A model generated the notes under the pieces. The model did not search any database, had not been told where the DNA came from, and saw nothing but the letters and a program-made list of their open reading frames with translations. Of a DNA stretch of 64,000 nucleotides, positions 42,399 to 56,844 are shown in pieces. The DNA is from Candidatus Latescibacterota bacterium (GTDB lineage Bacteria > Latescibacterota > UBA2968 > UBA8231). The translations under genes and the position numbers were made by a program. The stretch lies in contig CBDAOB010000003.1 of assembly GCA_965197905.1 (NCBI GenBank), positions 1,088,001 to 1,152,000 of the forward strand, in the 5' to 3' direction. Every line of letters starts with the position of its first letter. The first letter of the stretch is position 1.

Positions 42399-43753
42399 AT
42401 GACCAAACTGAAGGTTGTCGTGCTGGAAGGGGAAGAAGAGCGCGGCAACACGATAAAGGAAATTCTGGAGGGAGCGGGTCAATTCGAGCCGCTCATTTCC
42501 AAATCTCCGCGGCCGTTGATGAACCTTCTCGACGGTACACGGTGAAGGTGGTCAGCACCAACACCACGGTCAGCACCAACGAGCAAGATGGTCTGAAGTT
42601 CATCAAAGCCCTCTATCTCAAATACCAGCGCTACAAACAACCGCTTCCTCCGATCATCGTCTGCAGCTCTGACCAGAGCGGCGATACCGTCAAGCTCTAT
42701 GCCTATCGCTTCGCCGATGCCTCACTCATTTCCTACGTCTACATCAAGGACGAGGAATTGCAGCAAGGGGGAAACCGGCTCCTCGATCTGATCACGAAGG
42801 CGCTCAAGAGCCGTGAAGAGCTGGAGACCGCCGAGCCCGAAGAAGACGTGGCGGAGGTAGTGAAGAAAAAGCTCAAGAGCTTGCTGCAAAAGACCATCAC
42901 CTTGCCTTCGCTACCTGACGTGGCGGTGCAGGTCCAGGATGCCTTGAAGGATCCCGAGGTCACGTTCAAGAAACTGGCCAATATCATAAACACCGACATG
43001 ACCATGGGGGCCAACGTCATCAAACTGGCTAACAGTCCCCAATTCGGAGTATCGGGACAGATTGCCACCATCGATGATGCCTGCAAGCAAGTGGGAATGA
43101 ACGCCATCGCCAACACGGTAATGGCAACCAAGGTATTCGACGCCATGGAAGCGCTCCCGTCGGATTTCGATCTGAAACGGTTGCGGCGGCACAGTTATGC
43201 GGTGGGGACGGTGGCGCGGCTCGTTTCCCGCCGTTGCCGGGTGTTGAAGAAATCTATCGAACGGATGCAATTCAGCGGAATCATGTTTGCCGCAGGTTTG
43301 CTGCACGATATCGGCAAGGTGTTGATGACGCAATTTTTCCCCGAAGAATGTATCACAATCCTCGAGGAGGCCGGGTCCAGCGACTCCACGGCCGTAGAGG
43401 CGGAGCTCAAGGTCCTGGGCGTGACACACGGCGACGCTGGACTTCACGCAGGAGTCGAGTGGAGGTTTCCCGTCCTTCTGGTGAACGTGATCGGTCGGCA
43501 CCACTGGCCGTTACCGACGATTCTGTCGCGCCTCAAAACCAAACAGGGCCGGCTGGCGCAGCGGGTAATTCGCATCGCCGACGCCGCCAGCTACGAGATG
43601 GGGTACGACATGCTGCGCTCCGACGGCAAACCACCGACCCTCGAGCCAGAGCTTTTCAACAAGACCGGTCTCGACATAGATGAATTCGCAAAGTGGACCA
43701 AAGAGATCAAAGACGATATTGCCTACACCATCGATGTGCTCGGTAAGACCTGA
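42399..43753 (+). CDS. Atypical receiver + HDOD domain protein (frameshift near 42540)
   Basis: MTKLKVVVLEG.. from ATG 42399 stops at 42545; the -1 frame continues VKVV..LPSLPDVA..ANSP..HS..LLHDIGK..HH. Confidence 0.8.
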
Positions 43754-43808
43754 GAGGTCCCAAGGGCGAGGCGAATGAACAGTATCTCGACCACGCTTTT
43801 TGCTAGTC

Positions 43809-45038
43809 ATGTCCGCCGTTAAGGTCCTCGTCGTTGAGCGCAATGCCAAGATCGCCGGACTGCTAAGCGGACATCTGCGACAGACGGGGCACGACGCCGC
43901 CGATGTGCGCAACGGCGCCGAGGCAGCCATGGAACTGCGCGGCGGCAAGTTCGATGTGATACTCATGGACCATAGGGTGACCATGGGCGGTGTGAAGACC
44001 GCCCGCCTGCTGCGCCTGCACCCGAAACATGGCCATATCCCCGTAATACTCGCCCTGCCGCCCGATCAAGGAGAAGCCAGAGTCCTGGTCAAAGAAGCGC
44101 ACTCCATCGGACTCAAGAATTTCGTCATCAAACCGTTTCGCATGGACGCGCTGCAGAAGAAGCTGGCGCAGGTCGCTGACGACAAGGTAGTCGAGAAACC
44201 GACCGATTTCGAAATCCGGGAGGAAATTCGTTCGATCAGCAACCTTCCCACGATGCCGGCCGTGCGCGGCCGCCTGCTGGCGCTCCTGAGCAAATCCGAC
44301 AAGGAAGTTGACATTCGCAAGGTAGCGCACACCATTGAGCAAGACCCGGGACTGGCGACACAAGTAATGCGGGTCTGCAACTCGACCTACTTTGGCTTTC
44401 AGGGCAATCTGATGAGTCAGGCGGTGGCATTTCTAGGGGTGGAAGCGATTCGCAAGATCGTGCAGACCTCCATCATCTACGACTTCTTCGGCTCTAGCAA
44501 ATCCGACGACCGGGGTTTCAGCATGATGGATTTGTGGAAACATTCTCTGGCCACGGGCATGTCGATGGAGATAATCGGCAAAGCGGACAAGAAAAAGACA
44601 CACTTCATGCCCGGCGTGCTCCACGACATCGGAAAAGTGATCTTCAAGATTCGTTTTCCGGATCACTTCAACAAGGTGGTAGATCTCGTGGAAAAGGAAG
44701 GAAAATCGATGCTCGAGGCCGAAGAGGAGCTGCTCGGTATCTCCCACGCTGACTGCGGCGGGGAGGTGGCGTTACACTGGGACCTCCCGGGCGAGGTGCG
44801 AACCGCTATCGCGCAACATCACAAACCGGGAGAGGCGGATCAGCACCGCCGGTTGGCGGCCATGGTCCACATCGCCGACATCGCGGCGCGGAGAATGGAG
44901 ATCGGGTACGCCGGCGACGATCTCATCCCTCCCGTGGATCCCTATGCCCAGCGTATTCAAAAGAGTGTGGACGAGATTCTAACGCGCGCAGACGACTTCA
45001 AGGAACAGATCGACTCAATAATCGGGGATCTCGGGTAG
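43809..45038 (+). CDS. Response regulator receiver + HDOD domain protein
   Basis: VLVVE..DVILMD..KPF receiver; LPTMP, DPGL, WKHS, LHDIGK, QHH. Confidence 0.88.
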   Translation: MSAVKVLVVERNAKIAGLLSGHLRQTGHDAADVRNGAEAAMELRGGKFDVILMDHRVTMGGVKTARLLRLHPKHGHIPVILALPPDQGEARVLVKEAHSIGLKNFVIKPFRMDALQKKLAQVADDKVVEKPTDFEIREEIRSISNLPTMPAVRGRLLALLSKSDKEVDIRKVAHTIEQDPGLATQVMRVCNSTYFGFQGNLMSQAVAFLGVEAIRKIVQTSIIYDFFGSSKSDDRGFSMMDLWKHSLATGMSMEIIGKADKKKTHFMPGVLHDIGKVIFKIRFPDHFNKVVDLVEKEGKSMLEAEEELLGISHADCGGEVALHWDLPGEVRTAIAQHHKPGEADQHRRLAAMVHIADIAARRMEIGYAGDDLIPPVDPYAQRIQKSVDEILTRADDFKEQIDSIIGDLG

Positions 45039-45422: not shown

Positions 45423-46691
45423 CTAGCCGGCGGCGTCGGCCATGGAATGGTCGTTGATGGGCTTATGCTGCTTCCCGTTGGACCTACCGTTCGTTTCCCG
45501 ACCATAATACGACTGGATTCTCGTGCCCAACTCATGGGCACCGAGCGGAGAACATTGTTCGACTGCAGAAAGAAGGACGCGCCTGTCATTCCTTGTGAGG
45601 AACCCGGGGACCCTAATTCTACCGGGCTCGGTCAGCTCTGGAGCCGTTGGTGCTATATAGTGATCTCCGCAGCCTCCTACTTGCTCAAGTTCCGTATTTG
45701 AAGACACAGTTTCTACGCCACCGGCTTCGCCTTGCTCAATCCTGTACTTCCATCTTGAGTAGACGGACCAAACCCGCGGTAACTCGCACGAATACATCGA
45801 TTCCCAAACAGCAGTAACAGGGCTTCCCAACAGTCCCTGATGAAGTAACGAAAGCTCTAGTTCGAGCCAACTCTTGGTCATAGGATCAACAAGCCTCTCA
45901 CGGAAGGTGCGAACCCAAAGTCTTAGATACTCAGAAAACCGAGTTCCGACATATGAGAGCATTGAGTTCCAGCACCCGTATCTAGGAGATTCTATCAAGC
46001 CCGAAACGAAGGCCGTTGAAGGGTGATTGGGTAGAAATTCCTCCGATAGAATGGCCAAAAAAAGCTTGCTATGAGCCAGTCCAACTAGCTCCTGGATCTG
46101 CTCTGGGCTAATGAGTACGTTGTCCCAAGCCGCACCGGATTGCAACGGCGTACCCACTTTAAGTCCGTCTACCACAGCTCCCGAAAAGTTCGTGTGTGAG
46201 AACCTAGCACTGTAGGCATCCACACCTGTCAGATTCGAATTCGAAAAGTCCGCTCGAAAGGACGTTGCTTTTCTCAAAATCGCTCCAGACAGATCGGCGC
46301 CCTTCAATGAGGTATCCACGAGTCTTGCGCGCGAAAGCAACGTGCCCTGCATATTCGAGCCATCGAATTTGCAACCACTCAGGTCAGCGCCCCGAAAGTC
46401 CCAACCAGACAGATCCTCATCAGAATAGTCGATCCCTCGGAGATCAGCATGCCTCGTATGGGTGCCAGGAAGTTTTAACTTGATTCTCCGTGGTTTCCTT
46501 TCAACAACGCGTCCATCCCGCGAGAGACCGTCAAGGGCATAACAGACGGTGCGTTTGGATTTCCCGGTGGCGGCTGCAATTTCTTCCAAAGTCAGGTGTA
46601 CTTCATCCACCGGATGAGCAACCTGCAATGCGCGACTAATGAGAAAATCAAAAACCAAATTCTTGGTCGAGCCTGTAACTGCAGGTCCCAT
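45423..46691 (-). CDS. N-terminal winged-HTH + pentapeptide-repeat + uncharacterised C-terminal domain
   Basis: LTLEEIAAATGKSKRTVCYALDGLSRDG HTH; ADLRG/ADLSG/ADFSN repeats; AT-richer coding sequence. Confidence 0.8.
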   Translation of the reverse strand: MGPAVTGSTKNLVFDFLISRALQVAHPVDEVHLTLEEIAAATGKSKRTVCYALDGLSRDGRVVERKPRRIKLKLPGTHTRHADLRGIDYSDEDLSGWDFRGADLSGCKFDGSNMQGTLLSRARLVDTSLKGADLSGAILRKATSFRADFSNSNLTGVDAYSARFSHTNFSGAVVDGLKVGTPLQSGAAWDNVLISPEQIQELVGLAHSKLFLAILSEEFLPNHPSTAFVSGLIESPRYGCWNSMLSYVGTRFSEYLRLWVRTFRERLVDPMTKSWLELELSLLHQGLLGSPVTAVWESMYSCELPRVWSVYSRWKYRIEQGEAGGVETVSSNTELEQVGGCGDHYIAPTAPELTEPGRIRVPGFLTRNDRRVLLSAVEQCSPLGAHELGTRIQSYYGRETNGRSNGKQHKPINDHSMADAAG

Positions 46692-46712
46692 GAGCAGATC
46701 TCGGGGTAAGAG

Positions 46713-46768
46713 TTTTGCAACTTAGATTGCACCTATGTATAAGATCTATCTCCTGTGCAAAATTTGCA
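46713..46768. promoter_or_regulatory. Cluster of TGCA-based inverted repeats (candidate operator)
   Basis: TGCAA-N6-TTGCA at 46716-46731 and TGCAAA-A-TTTGCA at 46756-46768, upstream of the 46691 start. Confidence 0.45.
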
Positions 46769-46826
46769 ATGGGCAATGTATATGGGAGTGATGGGTGAGG
46801 CTCGTTAATTATTGTAAAATAACAGA

Positions 46827-48245
46827 TTAGGACTTTTCGAGGTCATCCAGAAGGTGGAGTTCTGTCGCTTTGGCAACCGCTTGGGTTCGCCTGTGAGTAC
46901 CTAGCTTTTGGAAGAGTCTATTTACATGGGATTTCACCGTGGCGACAGAGACGTATAGCTCTTCGCAAATCTGCTTATTCGAGTAACCCTCACTCACAAG
47001 CTTCAATACTGTTAGTTCCCGAGACGTCAACAACCCTTGCCTATCGCTGTTCTTATTCTCTGCGGCAGACATACGATCAGCTGTCAAAGGGCGCAGATAG
47101 TAATCAGCGTCGCTACCTAAGCGAGTAGATAGTTCCGGAAAAGTCAATGGCTCAGCGGCTTCAATGACTTTGCCAAGCATGGTTCTTTCTTTTGCGGAAA
47201 TTCTAGAAACGATTCCACCACTTCTCGGAATTTTGCGATCGCTGGTTCTCCAGATCTCATCTGAGCAGCCCCCCAATTTTTCGAGGATATTGGCGTTAAC
47301 TAGGTCCGCCAAGCCCCTCTGACAACCCCTCTGACTGTCTCGTTGCCGCCTAAAGAAAATCTGCCAAACTGGTGGGAGTTTTTGGCGTAACAACTCTTCG
47401 CTGAATTCCTCGACCGTCGACCCTACACAAAGAAGCGAAAGCGTAGCCAGTTCAATTTCGAATATGTCAGAGACCATCTTGTCGTGGTGGGATCTCATGA
47501 ACTTGAAGACAGGCTCTGCCATCTCGGTATATTCGAGCGCAATAGTTACCAATGAACTTCTCCAAGTACTCAACTTCCTTGCTTCAACCGACAACGCCAA
47601 AGGTTCCGAGTGTGGACTAGAAGGCGAGGGTTTCCGAAGCACGTCTGCCATCAGGTGACTATTGTACGCTATGCTGCACAATCCCTCGCACTGATCAGTG
47701 CTGATGGTTGATCCGTTCCAATCGGTTACCGTTTGCAGGGGGGTTCCAACTCTCATTCCAGCCATTTCTGCCCCGGAAAAATTCGCACCGGCAAAACAGC
47801 TACCAGCTGCACCCATGCCCGTCATGGAGGAGCCTCTAAAATCAGCGCGGAATGAAATCACGTTCCGAAAGTCCGTTTCTTCCAGGTCTGCACCTCGGAA
47901 GCTCGTTTCGAACAATCTAGTTCGCCGAAAATTCGCACCGCGCAGATCCGCCCCATTGAAGTTGGTTCCGGAAAGATCCGCGAAGCTCAAGTCTATTCCA
48001 CTTAGATCCTTCCCTGACAGGTCGATTCCTCGGAACTCGCTCGGCATGGTGACCCGCAATCCGTCGACAGACCAAGACACCAATCCCGCTTCGATTAGAG
48101 GATCGACGATGCTCGCACATGCCTCTGAAGATTTTTCCGCACCGACGATCTGCTCAACGGTGCAGATGGGTATTTTACCTGTCGGAGCACAGTTCCTTTG
48201 GAGCTCGGCGAAATGGTAGGCATGAGTAGGGCTGACAGGGGGCAT
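46827..48245 (-). CDS. Pentapeptide-repeat protein with C-terminal LuxR-type HTH
   Basis: IDLSG/ADLSG/ADLRG repeats; LTSRELTVLKLVSEGYSNKQICEELYVSVATVKSHVNRLFQKLG. Confidence 0.85.
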   Translation of the reverse strand: MPPVSPTHAYHFAELQRNCAPTGKIPICTVEQIVGAEKSSEACASIVDPLIEAGLVSWSVDGLRVTMPSEFRGIDLSGKDLSGIDLSFADLSGTNFNGADLRGANFRRTRLFETSFRGADLEETDFRNVISFRADFRGSSMTGMGAAGSCFAGANFSGAEMAGMRVGTPLQTVTDWNGSTISTDQCEGLCSIAYNSHLMADVLRKPSPSSPHSEPLALSVEARKLSTWRSSLVTIALEYTEMAEPVFKFMRSHHDKMVSDIFEIELATLSLLCVGSTVEEFSEELLRQKLPPVWQIFFRRQRDSQRGCQRGLADLVNANILEKLGGCSDEIWRTSDRKIPRSGGIVSRISAKERTMLGKVIEAAEPLTFPELSTRLGSDADYYLRPLTADRMSAAENKNSDRQGLLTSRELTVLKLVSEGYSNKQICEELYVSVATVKSHVNRLFQKLGTHRRTQAVAKATELHLLDDLEKS

Positions 48246-48590
48246 CGCTCACTTTTCCGTCAACGTCAAAGCAGGGGAGGCAGTCACAATATCAAAATTA
48301 CTCACGTGCATCAAGATGAATATTTTCGGATTGAGCTTGATCGAGTCGCCCAACGGTCGTAAGGCAAAATAAATCAAACCTTTAAGGTCGATCGATGAAG
48401 TCGTGCAACTAGAATTTCAGTTTGGCAGGTCGGGCGATTTGTCCTCCATGTAAACCGGATTCTTTGGCGGGATCTTAGAATCTTCTTACCGTACCCGATC
48501 AGGCGACACAGCGCCAAACTACAAGTCGCATCGAATACCACCAAGCTTGTGGTAGAAAAGGCAGAGTGAACTCCAGGAAGGACTAACCGA

Positions 48591-52262: not shown

Positions 52263-53411
52263 ATGTCGACCTGGATTGTCTGTTTTCACATCCCGGATCT
52301 AGCAGTTCGGACATTGACCGAAAATCCCCAGGAAAAGGTGGTGGTCTCCTGGGCAGGTCAGGTCTGGTCCTGGAGCGAGACCGTGGAGAAAAGCCGGCTC
52401 CGCACCGGTGATTCCCTGCAGCGGGCTCGGGCACTCTGTCCCGACGCGCTGCTACTGGAACGGGATCTGCATCGCGAGGTCATGATGCGGGAGCGTCTGC
52501 TTAATCAACTCTACTCGGCCTCCCCCCGAGTGATGATGCTCCATGAGACCTCTCTCCACGGGGCATGGGGGTTGTTGCAGAATCCGCTGGGGGATCGGCT
52601 ACGGCACCTGACAACGGAATTGCGGGCAAAGGTAGGTGTCGCCCAGCATCGATCTTATGCCATGTTGGCCGCGGCCAAAGCGGCCTTCGGTGAGCTTGTA
52701 GTAATAAAGCCGGCCGACCTGATGCCGTTTTTGCGGGAAACCTCGGTAGCGGTGTTGATCCCCTTGGGATACCCCAAGGTGGTTGATGCTCTGTCGCTGT
52801 TCGGCCTGCGCTCCCTGCAGCAGGTGTATCAATTGACCCGACGCCATCTGGAAGCCCAGTTCGAAGAGCAGGGCAGGTCACTCTACGCCTTGCTACATCC
52901 CAACGATGAACCTCCCATCCCCGTGTACGAACCGGGTGTAATCCAGACCGGGTTCGAGTTAGACGCATCCATTCTCGAAACCCTGGATCTCGCTCCTCAG
53001 CTCACTTACCTGGTGGATCAAGCAATCGATCAATTAAAGGGCAAGTGTGCTCAGTATCTGGAGCTGCAGTTGCAGACGGAAAAGGGCAAGGTGGAAGCCT
53101 GCCGGCTGTTGAAAGAGCCCGTATCCGACCAACGCAGCCTCATCCATGCGGCTCGGTATCTGCTCTCCAATCTATTGCCAAAGGCAGGTGAGGTTTGCGG
53201 TCTGGGAGTTTCTCTTGGCGGCCTGGTCGACACCCCGTTCAGGCAGGAGTCTTTGTTCCCTCAGCGAAAACCGGTTCTGAGCGCTTTGAGAGCGGTAGAA
53301 CGGCGATTTCCCTCCAAGCTGCTGCGGGGTATCGTGGCGGATCCACAACCTATTTTCCACGAAGAGCAAACCAGATTCGAACCCATTTTCCCGGGGAAAC
53401 CAGCCACCTGA
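52263..53411 (+). CDS. imuB: ImuB/ImuY-like Y-family polymerase homolog (catalytic acidic residues not evident)
   Basis: G..LQRARALCP, L..FGLRSL, QFEEQG, clamp-binding-like QESLF; upstream of dnaE2. Confidence 0.72.
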   Translation: MSTWIVCFHIPDLAVRTLTENPQEKVVVSWAGQVWSWSETVEKSRLRTGDSLQRARALCPDALLLERDLHREVMMRERLLNQLYSASPRVMMLHETSLHGAWGLLQNPLGDRLRHLTTELRAKVGVAQHRSYAMLAAAKAAFGELVVIKPADLMPFLRETSVAVLIPLGYPKVVDALSLFGLRSLQQVYQLTRRHLEAQFEEQGRSLYALLHPNDEPPIPVYEPGVIQTGFELDASILETLDLAPQLTYLVDQAIDQLKGKCAQYLELQLQTEKGKVEACRLLKEPVSDQRSLIHAARYLLSNLLPKAGEVCGLGVSLGGLVDTPFRQESLFPQRKPVLSALRAVERRFPSKLLRGIVADPQPIFHEEQTRFEPIFPGKPAT

Positions 53412-53653
53412 AGCTCTACGACGAACAGATAGAGGTTGTATCGGGCAGCGATTCAAAACCGATACGGCTGAGCTGGCGCAAACGATGGTATGAGGTAGCT
53501 GCCATCCAGGATGAGTGGAAGGTGCGCGGAAGGCATTGGTACCAAGAAGAGAGTCGTCGGTATTTCCAGATCCAAACCGCTGACAACCGGATCATGACTG
53601 TATGTCAAAAGGAAACGAAGGATGACTGGCTCCTGGTGAGAGTGGTCGATTGA
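53408..53653 (+). CDS. DUF6504 / ImuB C-terminal-like small protein
   Basis: KLYDEQIEV..P..LSWRKRWYEV..W..RRYF..W.LVRVVD; overlaps the imuB stop (CTGA) and the dnaE2 start (TTGA). Confidence 0.72.
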   Translation: MKLYDEQIEVVSGSDSKPIRLSWRKRWYEVAAIQDEWKVRGRHWYQEESRRYFQIQTADNRIMTVCQKETKDDWLLVRVVD

Positions 53654-56600
53654 ACTTCGCTCATCTGCACGTACGCTCCTGGTTCTCGTTTTTAGGTGGG
53701 GGATCGCCCCCTGAAAAACTGGTCCAGCGTGCTGCGCAACTTGGGTTTAAAGCCCTTGCTCTTACCGACCGGAACGGAGTCTACGGTGCGGTCCGGTTTC
53801 AACAGGCCTGCAGAGATGCCGGCGTTCACGGGGTCATCGGCGCCGAGGTTACGGTAGAGGACACGGCCCTGGTGCTTCTCTGCATGAGCCGGAAAGGGTA
53901 TGCCAACCTCAATCGCCTGCTGACCACCGCCCACCTGGCTGATAGGGACAGCCCTTCCGCAACCCTGGAGTCGGTGAAGAAGTACCATGAGGAGCTGTAC
54001 TGTCTTACCAATGGGAGGGATGGAAGACTGTGGGAGCTGGTCTCGCGGCGCAAAACACGGGAAGCAGATCTGTGGTTGCAGCAGTGGCACTCCATTTTTC
54101 GCGAGCGCCTGTACGTGGAGCTGTGTCACGGTCAGCACCAGGGAGACAGTTTCGTGGTGCAGCGAATCTATCGCCTGGCCAACCGACACGGCATTGCCAC
54201 TGTCGCTACCAACGACGTGCGTTTTTGCCGCCCGGACGATTACCGGGTCTACGATCTGTTCACCTGTATTCGGCACAACATCCGCATCTCCGATCCCCAT
54301 CCTGATCGACCCCACAATGCGGAACAGTATCTGAAAAGCGAGGCTGAGCTGCGCCGATGGATCCCTTTCCCCGAGGCGTTCGCCAGTGCCGCCGAGATTG
54401 CAGCCAACTGTAGCGTCGATCTCCTTCCGGAAGAGATCACCCCGCCCGCTGCCCATCTCCCAGATGGGATCAGTGGCAAAAAATATCTCACCTCCCTCTG
54501 CCGCGAGGCGCTTCCGGTAAAATACCTGGAGCGCAAAAATGAGGCGATCGCGCAACTGGAAAAAGAGCTGCAGGTCATCGCCGATCTCGACCTCCAAGAG
54601 TTTTTCCTGGTGGTACGCGAGGTGGTTGCGGAAGCAAGGCGCCGGGGAATTCGCTGCGCCGGCCGCGGTTCGGCGGCCAACAGCATCGTCGCCTATCTAT
54701 TGGATATCACCGCAGTGGATCCGATCGAACACAATCTCCTGTTCGAACGTTTCCTGCACGGCGGCCGCAAGGGTACCCCCGACATCGACATCGACTTCGA
54801 CTCCGATCGCCGTGACGAGGTGATCGAGTGGATGGAAGAGCGGTTCGGGCTGTCGCAAACCGCCATGACCGCAACCTTGGTGACTTACCGCGCCCGTTCC
54901 GCTTTGCGGGACGTGGCCAAAACCCTCGGCTGGCCTCTCGCGCTAATAAACGAGCTTACCAAGCTGGTACCGGGCTTTGGCATAGGAGTCATTCCCGAGT
55001 TTACCGAGCAGATCACCGCCCTTTTGGGGGAATCGCCCCTGGTTCATTACCTGCTGCATACAGTGCGACAGCTGGAAGGGTGCCCGCGTCATCTCGGGTT
55101 GCATTCGGGGGGGATGGTGCTCTCGAGAAAGTGTCTGACCTACTTCAGCCCAACCCAGGTGAGTGCCAACGGGGTGAAGGTGCTGCAGTTCGACAAGTAC
55201 GACATCGAAGCGCTGGGGCTGGTCAAACTCGATGTGCTCGGTCTGCGTATGCTGGCCACCCTCAGTGAGGCCGAAGAGCTGGTGCGGCGTCACGAAGATC
55301 CGCAATTCGACATCGATACGCTGCAGTTGGACGATCCACGGGTATACGAGCTTATGTGCTCAGGCCGCACCATCGGTCTGTTCCAGATCGAATCCCAGGG
55401 CCAGATGCACATGTTGGCGGTCAATCAACCCAGCTGTTTCGACGATGTGATCGTGGAGGTGGCGATCTTTCGTCCCGGTCCCCTGCAGTCGGGTATGGTC
55501 CATCCTTACATCCGGCGGCGCCAGGGGAAGGAGGAAGTGGTGTACGACCATCCCATCCTGGAGGAGATCCTCGAAGACACCTACGGCATCATCCTGTTCC
55601 AGGAGCAGGTGCTGGAGATAGCGCACCGCTTTGCCCACATGAGTCTCGAAGAGGCGGACGATTTCCGCGCTTTAATGTCCAAGTTCAGAGACCCGGGAGA
55701 GATGGAACGGATGCGGGGCAAATTCGTTGCGGGAGCTATGGGGCGAGGGGTACCCGAAGAGATTGCTCAAAAGGTGTTTGATCAGGTTTCCCACTTCGTC
55801 GGTTACGGATTTTGCCGTTCCCACGCGGCGGCCTTCGCGCGTACGGTGTATCACTCCGCCTATCTGAAACGATACAACCCGGCTTGTTACATGGCTGCCG
55901 TTATGGAGCATCGTCCCGGATTTTACGATCAGGGTACGCTGGAAGAGGAAGCGAAACGCTTCGGTGTCGACATTCTGCCGCCCGACATCAACTGCTCCCA
56001 AATCCGTTTTGATGTGGAGCCGGTAAAGAAGGGGGCTCTGGCGATTCGCAAACCTTTGACCTCCGTGCGCAACGTATCCGAAGAGGATGCAACGCGTATC
56101 GTCTGGGGTCGCCTGGCAGGAGCGTACAAAAGCGTCGAGGATCTGATCACCAGAGTTGCCCTCGATCGCGACGTGCTCGAACCTCTCGCCCTTGCCGGCG
56201 CTCTGGACAAGCTTGCCACTTCCAGCCGCGATGCTTTATGGCAGATTGGAGTACTGATGAATCGCATCGACTTGATCCGCGATCACGCTCCAGCCCACTC
56301 GCTGTTTACCTTGCCGGTGATCTCCTCGATTGATATTCCAACGCTCCCCGATCTGACTCAGGTCGAACGAATGACCTGGGATCACCACGCCCATGAAGCA
56401 AGCCGGGTACACCCCATGTCGTTGATTCGTCGTACCCTGAAGAGGCTTGGAGTGATGCCGGTCAGCGGCTGCTTCCGTATCGTTCCCTTAGAGCAAGAAG
56501 GCAAAGCAGCGGAGCCGATGGTGACCATCGCCGGCCGCGTCATCCTGCGCCAGCGTCCCGCCACCGCCAAGGGAGTTATGTTTATAACCCTTGAGGACGA

Positions 56601-56844
56601 AACCGGGTATATCCAGGGGGTGGCGTTTCAACAGATCCAAGAGCAGTTCGGTGAGGTGCTGAGACAACCGGAGCTGATCGTCAGAGGTCGTCTGCAAGCC
56701 AGCGGGGGATGGAGGGGGCTGGTCATGCAGGAAGCCTGGCCCATCGAAGGAATGTTTGGCGGTTATTCCGGTTTTGCCTCGCAGAGTGGGGGAAGAGACC
56801 AGGTGGATGAAGCTCCGATCTCGGCACAACGACAGATGCGGTAG
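53650..56844 (+). CDS. dnaE2: Error-prone DNA polymerase III alpha subunit DnaE2 (ImuC)
   Basis: PHP HLHVRS, GRGSAANS, PDIDIDFD, KLDVLGLRML, YGFCRSHAAAF, RQRPATAKGVMFITLEDETG; ends shortly after the OB fold. Confidence 0.92.
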   Translation: MNFAHLHVRSWFSFLGGGSPPEKLVQRAAQLGFKALALTDRNGVYGAVRFQQACRDAGVHGVIGAEVTVEDTALVLLCMSRKGYANLNRLLTTAHLADRDSPSATLESVKKYHEELYCLTNGRDGRLWELVSRRKTREADLWLQQWHSIFRERLYVELCHGQHQGDSFVVQRIYRLANRHGIATVATNDVRFCRPDDYRVYDLFTCIRHNIRISDPHPDRPHNAEQYLKSEAELRRWIPFPEAFASAAEIAANCSVDLLPEEITPPAAHLPDGISGKKYLTSLCREALPVKYLERKNEAIAQLEKELQVIADLDLQEFFLVVREVVAEARRRGIRCAGRGSAANSIVAYLLDITAVDPIEHNLLFERFLHGGRKGTPDIDIDFDSDRRDEVIEWMEERFGLSQTAMTATLVTYRARSALRDVAKTLGWPLALINELTKLVPGFGIGVIPEFTEQITALLGESPLVHYLLHTVRQLEGCPRHLGLHSGGMVLSRKCLTYFSPTQVSANGVKVLQFDKYDIEALGLVKLDVLGLRMLATLSEAEELVRRHEDPQFDIDTLQLDDPRVYELMCSGRTIGLFQIESQGQMHMLAVNQPSCFDDVIVEVAIFRPGPLQSGMVHPYIRRRQGKEEVVYDHPILEEILEDTYGIILFQEQVLEIAHRFAHMSLEEADDFRALMSKFRDPGEMERMRGKFVAGAMGRGVPEEIAQKVFDQVSHFVGYGFCRSHAAAFARTVYHSAYLKRYNPACYMAAVMEHRPGFYDQGTLEEEAKRFGVDILPPDINCSQIRFDVEPVKKGALAIRKPLTSVRNVSEEDATRIVWGRLAGAYKSVEDLITRVALDRDVLEPLALAGALDKLATSSRDALWQIGVLMNRIDLIRDHAPAHSLFTLPVISSIDIPTLPDLTQVERMTWDHHAHEASRVHPMSLIRRTLKRLGVMPVSGCFRIVPLEQEGKAAEPMVTIAGRVILRQRPATAKGVMFITLEDETGYIQGVAFQQIQEQFGEVLRQPELIVRGRLQASGGWRGLVMQEAWPIEGMFGGYSGFASQSGGRDQVDEAPISAQRQMR

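Follow-up and report, generated by a model that had tools for sequence, protein, structure and literature searches.

What does a pentapeptide-repeat solenoid do when it stands between a DNA-binding head and a domain of no assignable family? The question is raised by two neighbouring genes, here A and B, in a 64,000-nucleotide (nt) stretch of a Candidatus Latescibacterota genome (contig CBDAOB010000003.1, positions 1,088,001 to 1,152,000; hereafter the window). For most pentapeptide-repeat proteins no function is known; those best understood are DNA mimics that bind gyrase. We propose instead that A and B are self-regulating one-component transcription regulators, B with a thiol-dependent sensor domain, that have been diversified by allele exchange, a reading that we judge reasonably probable. 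G000 denotes the genome that holds the window (on its 1.2-Mb contig C3), and G002 and G001 are other genomes of the same genus. C, D and E are further full paralogues, and X is the shared post-repeat domain; G002 also carries D2, a copy without X, and F, a fragment.

A preliminary description of this DNA had reported two co-oriented open reading frames (ORFs) of 472 and 422 amino acids (aa), and both are confirmed on the minus strand. As it had also proposed, they are paralogous over most of their length (32% identity over 336 aa, E 3e-47), and this likeness is not confined to the repeats, since the post-repeat domain aligns by itself (26% over 215 aa, E 6e-18). The sequence motifs it quoted are present, except that NFSGA...G..VGTPLQ has three residues after the alanine where two had been given. 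Pfam detects Pentapeptide repeats above cut-off in both proteins. In the fold model of B, residues 7-75 form a winged helix-turn-helix (HTH), and a beta-helix and helices make up the remainder; the Pfam family HTH_Crp_2 matches residues 28-72 below threshold (E 0.008), so the winged HTH noted earlier in this ORF is confirmed by the model. A ends in a LuxR/GerE-type HTH with a score well above the Pfam cut-off, and no receiver or autoinducer-binding domain matches A in Pfam at E values up to 1; the lack of a receiver is again as first described. No cyclic-nucleotide-binding (cNMP) domain was matched by Pfam in A or B. The N-terminal 68 residues of A are a degenerate homologue of the winged HTH; their recognition helix is altered and their net charge is -3, and they are conserved between G000 and G002 with a ratio of nonsynonymous to synonymous divergence (omega) of 0.13. 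The layout of the family is a winged HTH, about five pentapeptide coils, X and often an -AAG tail.

Immediately upstream of B lies a palindrome, TGCAA-N6-TTGCA, which we consider a candidate operator. Its arms are kept in G002 while the surrounding DNA is about 50% identical. C and E carry TGCG-N8-CGCA palindromes 5 nt downstream of a promoter-like TTGATC-17-TA(A/C)ATT, and the same -35 hexamer is found upstream of B and D in G002. The pattern TGC-N10-GCA occurs in five of six regions upstream of copies with an intact head, in neither of the two upstream of A, not in the one upstream of D2, and in 1.2% of 4,153 controls. Both B alleles have the recognition helix SKR[TS]VxY, which is different in C, D and E. 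A near-identical site in G002 (C1:3335622) sits within an ORF and was rejected as a regulon member.

Domain X spans about 220 aa and is predicted to be all- or mostly helical, with almost no beta-sheet in the model of B. One position stands out: Cys240 (45972-45974 in B) is invariant in 18 of 18 B-type sequences and lost in the A-types. It directly precedes a predicted helix (241-251) and is accompanied by an invariant Trp241 and Asp269 and by a near-invariant Arg and Glu; a basic residue at position 306 of B (45774-45776) is lost together with the cysteine in A-types. The domain had been described as unassignable from its sequence, and it did find no family match among PDB sequences, where the best was a designed helical repeat over 39-42 columns, and none in Pfam, NCBIfam, PHROGs or PADLOC (2.0 library, dated 2023). 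In the ESM Atlas, one search returned only matches below 0.85 and another returned none. The structure searches used full-length B, and the repeat and the head filled the match lists; the single-sequence model of the full-length protein has a predicted local distance difference test score (pLDDT) of 46. The absence of X from these fold lists does not show a new fold, because full-length B was folded and not X alone.

The region had also been described as an acquired lower-GC islet. Its GC content is indeed low, at 50.8% for 45423-48245 against 58.4 +/- 2.3% for the genome (0.55% of 13,354 equal-sized windows are as low), and GC at third codon positions (GC3) is about 0.53 in A and B (0.52-0.53 in B) compared with 0.66-0.76 in ten neighbours. 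The B allele at the same site in G002 is host-like, with a GC3 of 0.76, so low GC is a property of the allele, and not of the site or of an islet inserted recently. The locus and its G002 counterpart are collinear; neighbouring proteins are 87-99% identical between the two genomes, but A and B are only 45% and 40% identical. This divergence is concentrated in a segment without a blastn match to the syntenic locus, whose edges fall within the repeats of A (codon 136) and 25 codons upstream of the stop codon of B; the tail of B lies outside it, being common to the G002 allele. Synonymous divergence outside the segment is 0.19-0.26 for five neighbours, 0.34 for orthologue C and 0.39-0.51 for the first 136 codons of A, and rises inside it to a saturated 0.73-0.86.

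In a tree of X (22 rows), A of G002 groups with B of G000 (96/96) and A of G000 stands alone on a long branch. Two database proteins, P0003 and P0004, have an X that is 84-87% identical to that of B with different tails, and a third, P0010, is an A-type protein with a G002-like X; all three are database proteins without genomic context. The simplest reading of these comparisons is that recombination in conserved anchors put a distant allele in place of the internal segment. The site itself predates the split between G000 and G002, and the difference lies in an internal 2.3-kb allele, which qualifies the earlier description as acquired. Relaxed selection, named earlier as an outcome that would speak against the proposed module, was not found: omega is 0.04 in domain X of C and 0.09-0.14 in other orthologous segments, values of 0.04-0.14 that indicate purifying selection in comparable orthologous segments, and 0.36 in the 25-codon tail of B. 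Coverage in run X6 extends over the flanks of the locus but nearly vanishes at 45.6-47.7 kb, and the contigs of three runs end at 47836-47890; this pattern fits a further allele and is not used as evidence, because no contig bridges the gap.

These features can be assembled into a model of how the locus may work. A dimer of B would bind the palindrome upstream of its own start codon and repress both itself and the receiver gene behind it, with the pentapeptide coil serving as a rigid spacer between head and X. Cys240 would act as a thiol switch responding to an oxidant, an electrophile or a covalent ligand, and its modification or ligand binding would lift repression, while the AAG tail could be a proteolysis tag that keeps B short-lived. 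A would be a signal-blind second regulator, since it has lost the cysteine, the basic residue and the recognition helix and has gained a LuxR head; it may bind DNA through the latter or tune B through a contact between X domains. Homologous exchange between anchors in the 5' part of A and the last 25 codons of B would replace X, and would therefore probably change the signal sensed while keeping the operator specificity of B. The earlier suggestion that a solenoid is linked to DNA binding in a regulator by way of an unassigned domain is supported. Concerning the tail, 14 of 4,926 ORFs in G000 end in AAG where 4.8 are expected (about threefold), often as EAAG or AAAG, which is possibly a lineage-specific C-terminal signal. 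We set aside the idea that the cysteine clips the terminal glycine of -AAG to expose an Ala-Ala degron, because the genome as a whole has an excess of AAG ends and the tail is missing from three distant members that carry the cysteine.

Several points weigh against this model. The palindrome pattern was derived from the same sequences in which it was counted, and these include orthologues that are not independent, so that they represent three loci; D lacks the pattern. The B site is not enriched genome-wide (5 sites against 3.0 expected, with 7 for the reversed control), so no wider regulon is seen and the evidence is limited to autoregulation. A clear -35/-10 pair for B was found only in G002 and not in G000. 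The fold lists reflect the repeat and head of full-length B. An invariant cysteine would suit a catalytic site as well as a sensor. Finally, allele exchange is drawn from two genomes together with P0003, P0004 and P0010.

The family is small. The X profile finds matches in two genomes, G000 and G002, both among the 132 searched for the class and among the 168 searched for the phylum, with full copies numbering from three (A, B and C in G000, C at C3:953671-954891) to five (A to E in G002, in addition to D2 and F). A and B are syntenic in the second genome, which answers the earlier call to see whether the two genes co-occur. G001 (89% complete, 320 contigs) has no X-profile match, and its syntenic site is without the entire HDOD-HDOD-receiver-B-A block. 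Against 1.84 billion representatives, the profile returned 18 matches at E values up to 0.001, one of which (P0019, 2,724 aa) was discarded as spurious with a match of 35 columns. The long matches have the same order of winged HTH, pentapeptide repeats and X; as hosts are not given for them, the two most distant, P0018 and P0020, may come from other taxa. No relative was found in IMG/VR viral contigs, 50,697 phage records or 72,556 plasmids. L030 was dismissed as a chance match, its ORFs being unrelated housekeeping genes. A contig end from a Terriglobia metagenome-assembled genome (L032:1-1859), 100% identical to the G002 A/B locus over 1,859 nt, was rejected as a case of transfer and is likely an assembly chimera; beyond 1,859 nt it presumably reads into the end of a transposase gene. 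D lies in a stretch absent from G000 (L019:3900-10500; G002:C1 ~3240900-3247500), together with the antidote of an addiction module, an AEP-TOTE helicase and the pair DUF4160/DUF2442; behind it comes D2, a winged HTH-pentapeptide protein. This architecture did not come up among the papers listed by our literature searches, with subscription journals and supplements outside their coverage. The third paralogue in G000, the candidate operator, the invariant cysteine, the receiver gene downstream of B and the antisense cassette described next all extend the preliminary description.

A conserved stretch lies behind C (in both genomes), D and E, and not behind A and B. It holds a leader ORF of 25-30 codons that overlaps the start of a gene of 60-70 aa with no assigned family, whose profile matched four times in 168 genomes, each time directly behind a family gene. 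An antisense promoter-like pair, TTGC[AG][AT]-17-TA[GC]ATT, occurs three times in G000, one of them at the cassette. The antisense RNA, folded for three of the four copies, is predicted to be 82-87 nt long, with two hairpins, one over the ribosome site and the start of the leader ORF and the other a terminator followed by a U-run. Covariation lends it weak support (double changes in 2 of 22 pairs, covariation term +0.62, four sequences), and the sole Rfam match, to suhB at the cassette of C, falls short of the threshold with 18.4 against 41 bits (E 1.3). Paralogue E occurs in G002 but not at the collinear site in G000, where an apparent 3' remnant of the small gene is kept. No transposase or integrase, terminal repeats or target duplication were found at A/B or E, and self-mobility of the E cassette was rejected, as it has neither repeats nor duplication. 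The missing repeats and the small-gene remnant suggest that E was lost from G000 rather than transposed. In phages, the antisense switches P22 sar/ant, P1 c4/ant and Gifsy-1 IsrK/orf45/anrP control antirepressors or leader-coupled genes, according to the available text of PMC12197685. The resemblance in layout to such phage antisense control hints at a mobile-element origin of the cassette.

Downstream of B, the single-domain receiver protein keeps the acidic pair, Asp, Ser and Lys, and its gene is likely co-transcribed with B as an output of the B promoter. The two HDOD genes that converge on this run belong to the block absent from the syntenic site of G001. The first HDOD ORF (42542-43753) covers residues 50-452 of the orthologous protein in G002, and small insertions appear at 42537-42540 in contigs from two other runs; its 5' end may be frameshifted in G000. 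The receiver-HDOD protein of the window has eight matches in G002 and one in G001, and flagellin N-terminal domains have 10 matches in G000, 10 in G002 and 7 in G001. With 10 such matches in the genome, a receiver beside HDOD genes could tie the switch to motility signalling, which is a guess. Elsewhere in the window (52263-56844), an ImuB-like gene with weak IMS matches is followed by a 1,064-aa ORF that we take to be a DnaE2 polymerase, probably forming a mutagenesis cassette. ARAGORN finds no tRNA gene on G000:C3, compared with 28 on C4 and 20 on C5. At L020:3380-6430, a 1,016-aa protein combines Pfam matches to Rpb2 (domains 3 and 6) and Rpb1 (domain 2) in one chain; it has an orthologue at G000:C5 ~903590-906610, and no obvious rpoBC operon is apparent in the stretch seen.

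Table. Features of the A/B locus in window coordinates; copies of the antisense cassette are given in the coordinates of their own loci.
Feature	Position	Strand	Remark
Two HDOD genes that converge on the A-B-receiver run; the second also encodes a receiver domain	42542..45038	+	
Single-domain receiver protein, 122 aa, starts 9 nt after the B stop codon	45046..45414	-	
Gene B, 422 aa: CRP-like winged HTH, pentapeptide repeats, domain X, DAAG tail	45423..46691	-	
B tail, low confidence (likely disordered), ends DAAG	45423..45491	-	
B domain X, residues 179-400, predicted mostly helical	45492..46157	-	
B pentapeptide beta-helix, residues 81-178, about 5 coils, net charge -2	46158..46451	-	
B winged HTH, residues 7-75, predicted CRP DNA-binding-domain fold	46467..46673	-	
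Exchanged segment, about 2.3 kb, no blastn match to the syntenic G002 locus	45501..47838	.	flanks ~89-90% DNA identity
16-bp palindrome TGCAA-N6-TTGCA, candidate B operator, ends 24 nt before the B start codon	46716..46731	.	
Gene A, 472 aa: degenerate winged HTH, pentapeptide repeats, Cys-less domain X, LuxR HTH	46827..48245	-	
A LuxR/GerE HTH, residues 406-459	46869..47030	-	Pfam 64.1 bits, cut-off 23.5
A domain X, residues 166-381, without the family Cys and Arg/Lys; long branch	47103..47750	-	
A pentapeptide beta-helix, residues 69-165; the exchanged segment has an edge here, near codon 136	47751..48041	-	
A residues 1-68, degenerate homologue of the family winged HTH	48042..48245	-	pairwise hhalign 54%, E 1e-4
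Candidate sigma-70-type promoter of A, TTGATG-17-TATTGT	48286..48314	-	consensus match only; same hexamers in G002
Antisense cassette copies	L001:10896-11256 (G000:C3 ~954895-955255); L018:8728-9088; L019:8912-9265; L020:7548-7900		

How else could the locus be explained? One alternative keeps the cysteine and drops the sensor: X could be a cysteine enzyme, such as a thiol protease, a transferase or a ligase-like protein, active in B and catalytically dead in its partner A, so that the proteins would be enzymes that regulate themselves. An invariant cysteine just before a predicted helix, together with a Trp and an Asp that are likewise invariant and an Arg and a Glu that nearly are, would suit an active site, as would the joint loss of the cysteine and the basic residue in A-types, and proteins that follow a solenoid with a helical catalytic domain exist, SopA and NleL being among the structure matches of B. 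However, X has no invariant histidine and its model almost no beta-sheet, the NleL alignments end at residue 210-215 and longer ones have root-mean-square deviations of 6.7 Å (SopA) and 15-16 Å (NleL), and nothing within X matches PDB, Pfam, NCBIfam or PHROG entries, which leaves an enzyme unlikely. We regard it as distinctly unlikely that the locus is a module for defence, toxin-antitoxin function or immunity to mobile elements, in which the variable X recognizes invaders or kin. Wholesale allele exchange between conserved anchors is typical of conflict genes; D has addiction-module, DUF4160/DUF2442 and TOTE genes around it, in DNA that G000 lacks, and the cassette of antisense RNA, leader and small gene resembles phage lysogeny switches as these appear in the available text of PMC12197685. 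Yet the viral, phage and plasmid collections hold no relative, A/B, C and E lie amid metabolic and signalling genes, no nuclease or toxin domain was detected, and there are no terminal repeats or target duplications. In PADLOC, B gave only a weak match to mad1 within the HTH (residues 31-51, E 0.029); the other rows are CARF/CasR/Csa3 models, whose positions are not shown. The defence role floated in the preliminary description is not supported by these searches.

That A and B form an obligate heterodimer with a matched pair of X domains, exchanged together for that reason, we consider very unlikely. The X and LuxR domains of A and nearly all of B do fall within one exchanged segment, and A precedes B in two of two genomes, but C, D and E have no adjacent A partner, a palindromic site fits a homodimer of B, and adjacency alone explains co-exchange. 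Almost no credence remains for a solenoid that acts on gyrase as a DNA mimic in the manner of MfpA or Qnr, as the earlier description had considered. The predicted right-handed quadrilateral beta-helix of B (from Pfam, the fold model and the structure match) is of the right kind, but family solenoids are short (about five internal coils, 93-128 residues, against eight coils in EfsQnr), near neutral (net charge -7 to +6) and flanked by domains at both ends; B scores 27.5 bits with the Qnr model (cut-off 240) and 20.8 bits with the MfpA model (cut-off 360). MfpA and Qnr form head-to-head dimers through a C-terminal helix and need a DNA-like charged surface, as set out in the available text of a review that has no instance of the terms "Helix-turn-helix", "DNA binding" and "domain architecture" (PMC8145042, also for the EfsQnr coil count). 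A YjbI-type repeat protein has broad transcriptional effects, and its abstract mentions no DNA-binding domain (PMC13553396).

If a self-regulating, thiol-responsive B is the right reading, the beta-helix forms the middle of a transcription factor, with a CRP-like head on one side and a cysteine domain of no assigned family on the other, and populations exchange the input domain of this regulator but retain its operator. One-component regulators that repress themselves and carry a CRP-type head are a known kind; what appears to be new is the unassigned cysteine domain and the exchangeable core. The candidate operator, a natural Cys-less variant and a number of deeply diverged alleles make binding, sensing and the role of the coil testable in E. 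coli, and open a way into the gene regulation of a phylum that is uncultured; the reach is limited by the tiny size of the family. A bolder version is possible and on balance doubtful: X would be a new Cys-dependent sensor or enzyme fold, and the family a domesticated phage-like switch kit, multiplied and rewired in the genus. At this locus an active B and a disarmed A equipped with LuxR would together control the CheY-like receiver that lies next to the HDOD genes, and swaps of the whole internal cassette between populations would change their specificity.

Among known systems, CRP/FNR regulators share with B the predicted CRP-type winged HTH fold, but in B this head is N-terminal and the coils and helical X take the place of the cNMP-binding domain; because that domain is absent and the domain order reversed, B is not a member of the family. 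OhrR, HypR and NemR are one-component thiol-sensing repressors. B is reminiscent of them in its DNA-binding head, its candidate autoregulatory palindrome and a single conserved cysteine at the start of a helix, but differs in fold and size, with the cysteine in a separate 220-aa domain about 100 beta-helix residues from the head. Like LuxR/GerE solos of the MalT and CsgD type, A has a C-terminal GerE HTH without a receiver, although its input is a degenerate winged HTH, coils and a Cys-less X instead of an autoinducer-binding, PAS or STAND domain. The E3 ligases SopA and NleL, which use a catalytic cysteine, likewise place a helical domain after a pentapeptide beta-helix; their structural match to B is limited to the repeat, and the N-terminus of B is a predicted DNA-binding head. 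MfpA, Qnr, AlbG and HetL have the right-handed quadrilateral beta-helix that is also predicted for A and B, whose coil is short, internal, near neutral and below all family cut-offs. At C, D and E, and not at A/B, the cassette has a predicted antisense-over-leader, coupled-gene layout that resembles that of P22 sar/ant, P1 c4/ant and Gifsy-1 IsrK, as far as these are covered in PMC12197685, and differs from them in that no phage genes were seen around C and E, the small gene is unassigned and the suhB match is below threshold.

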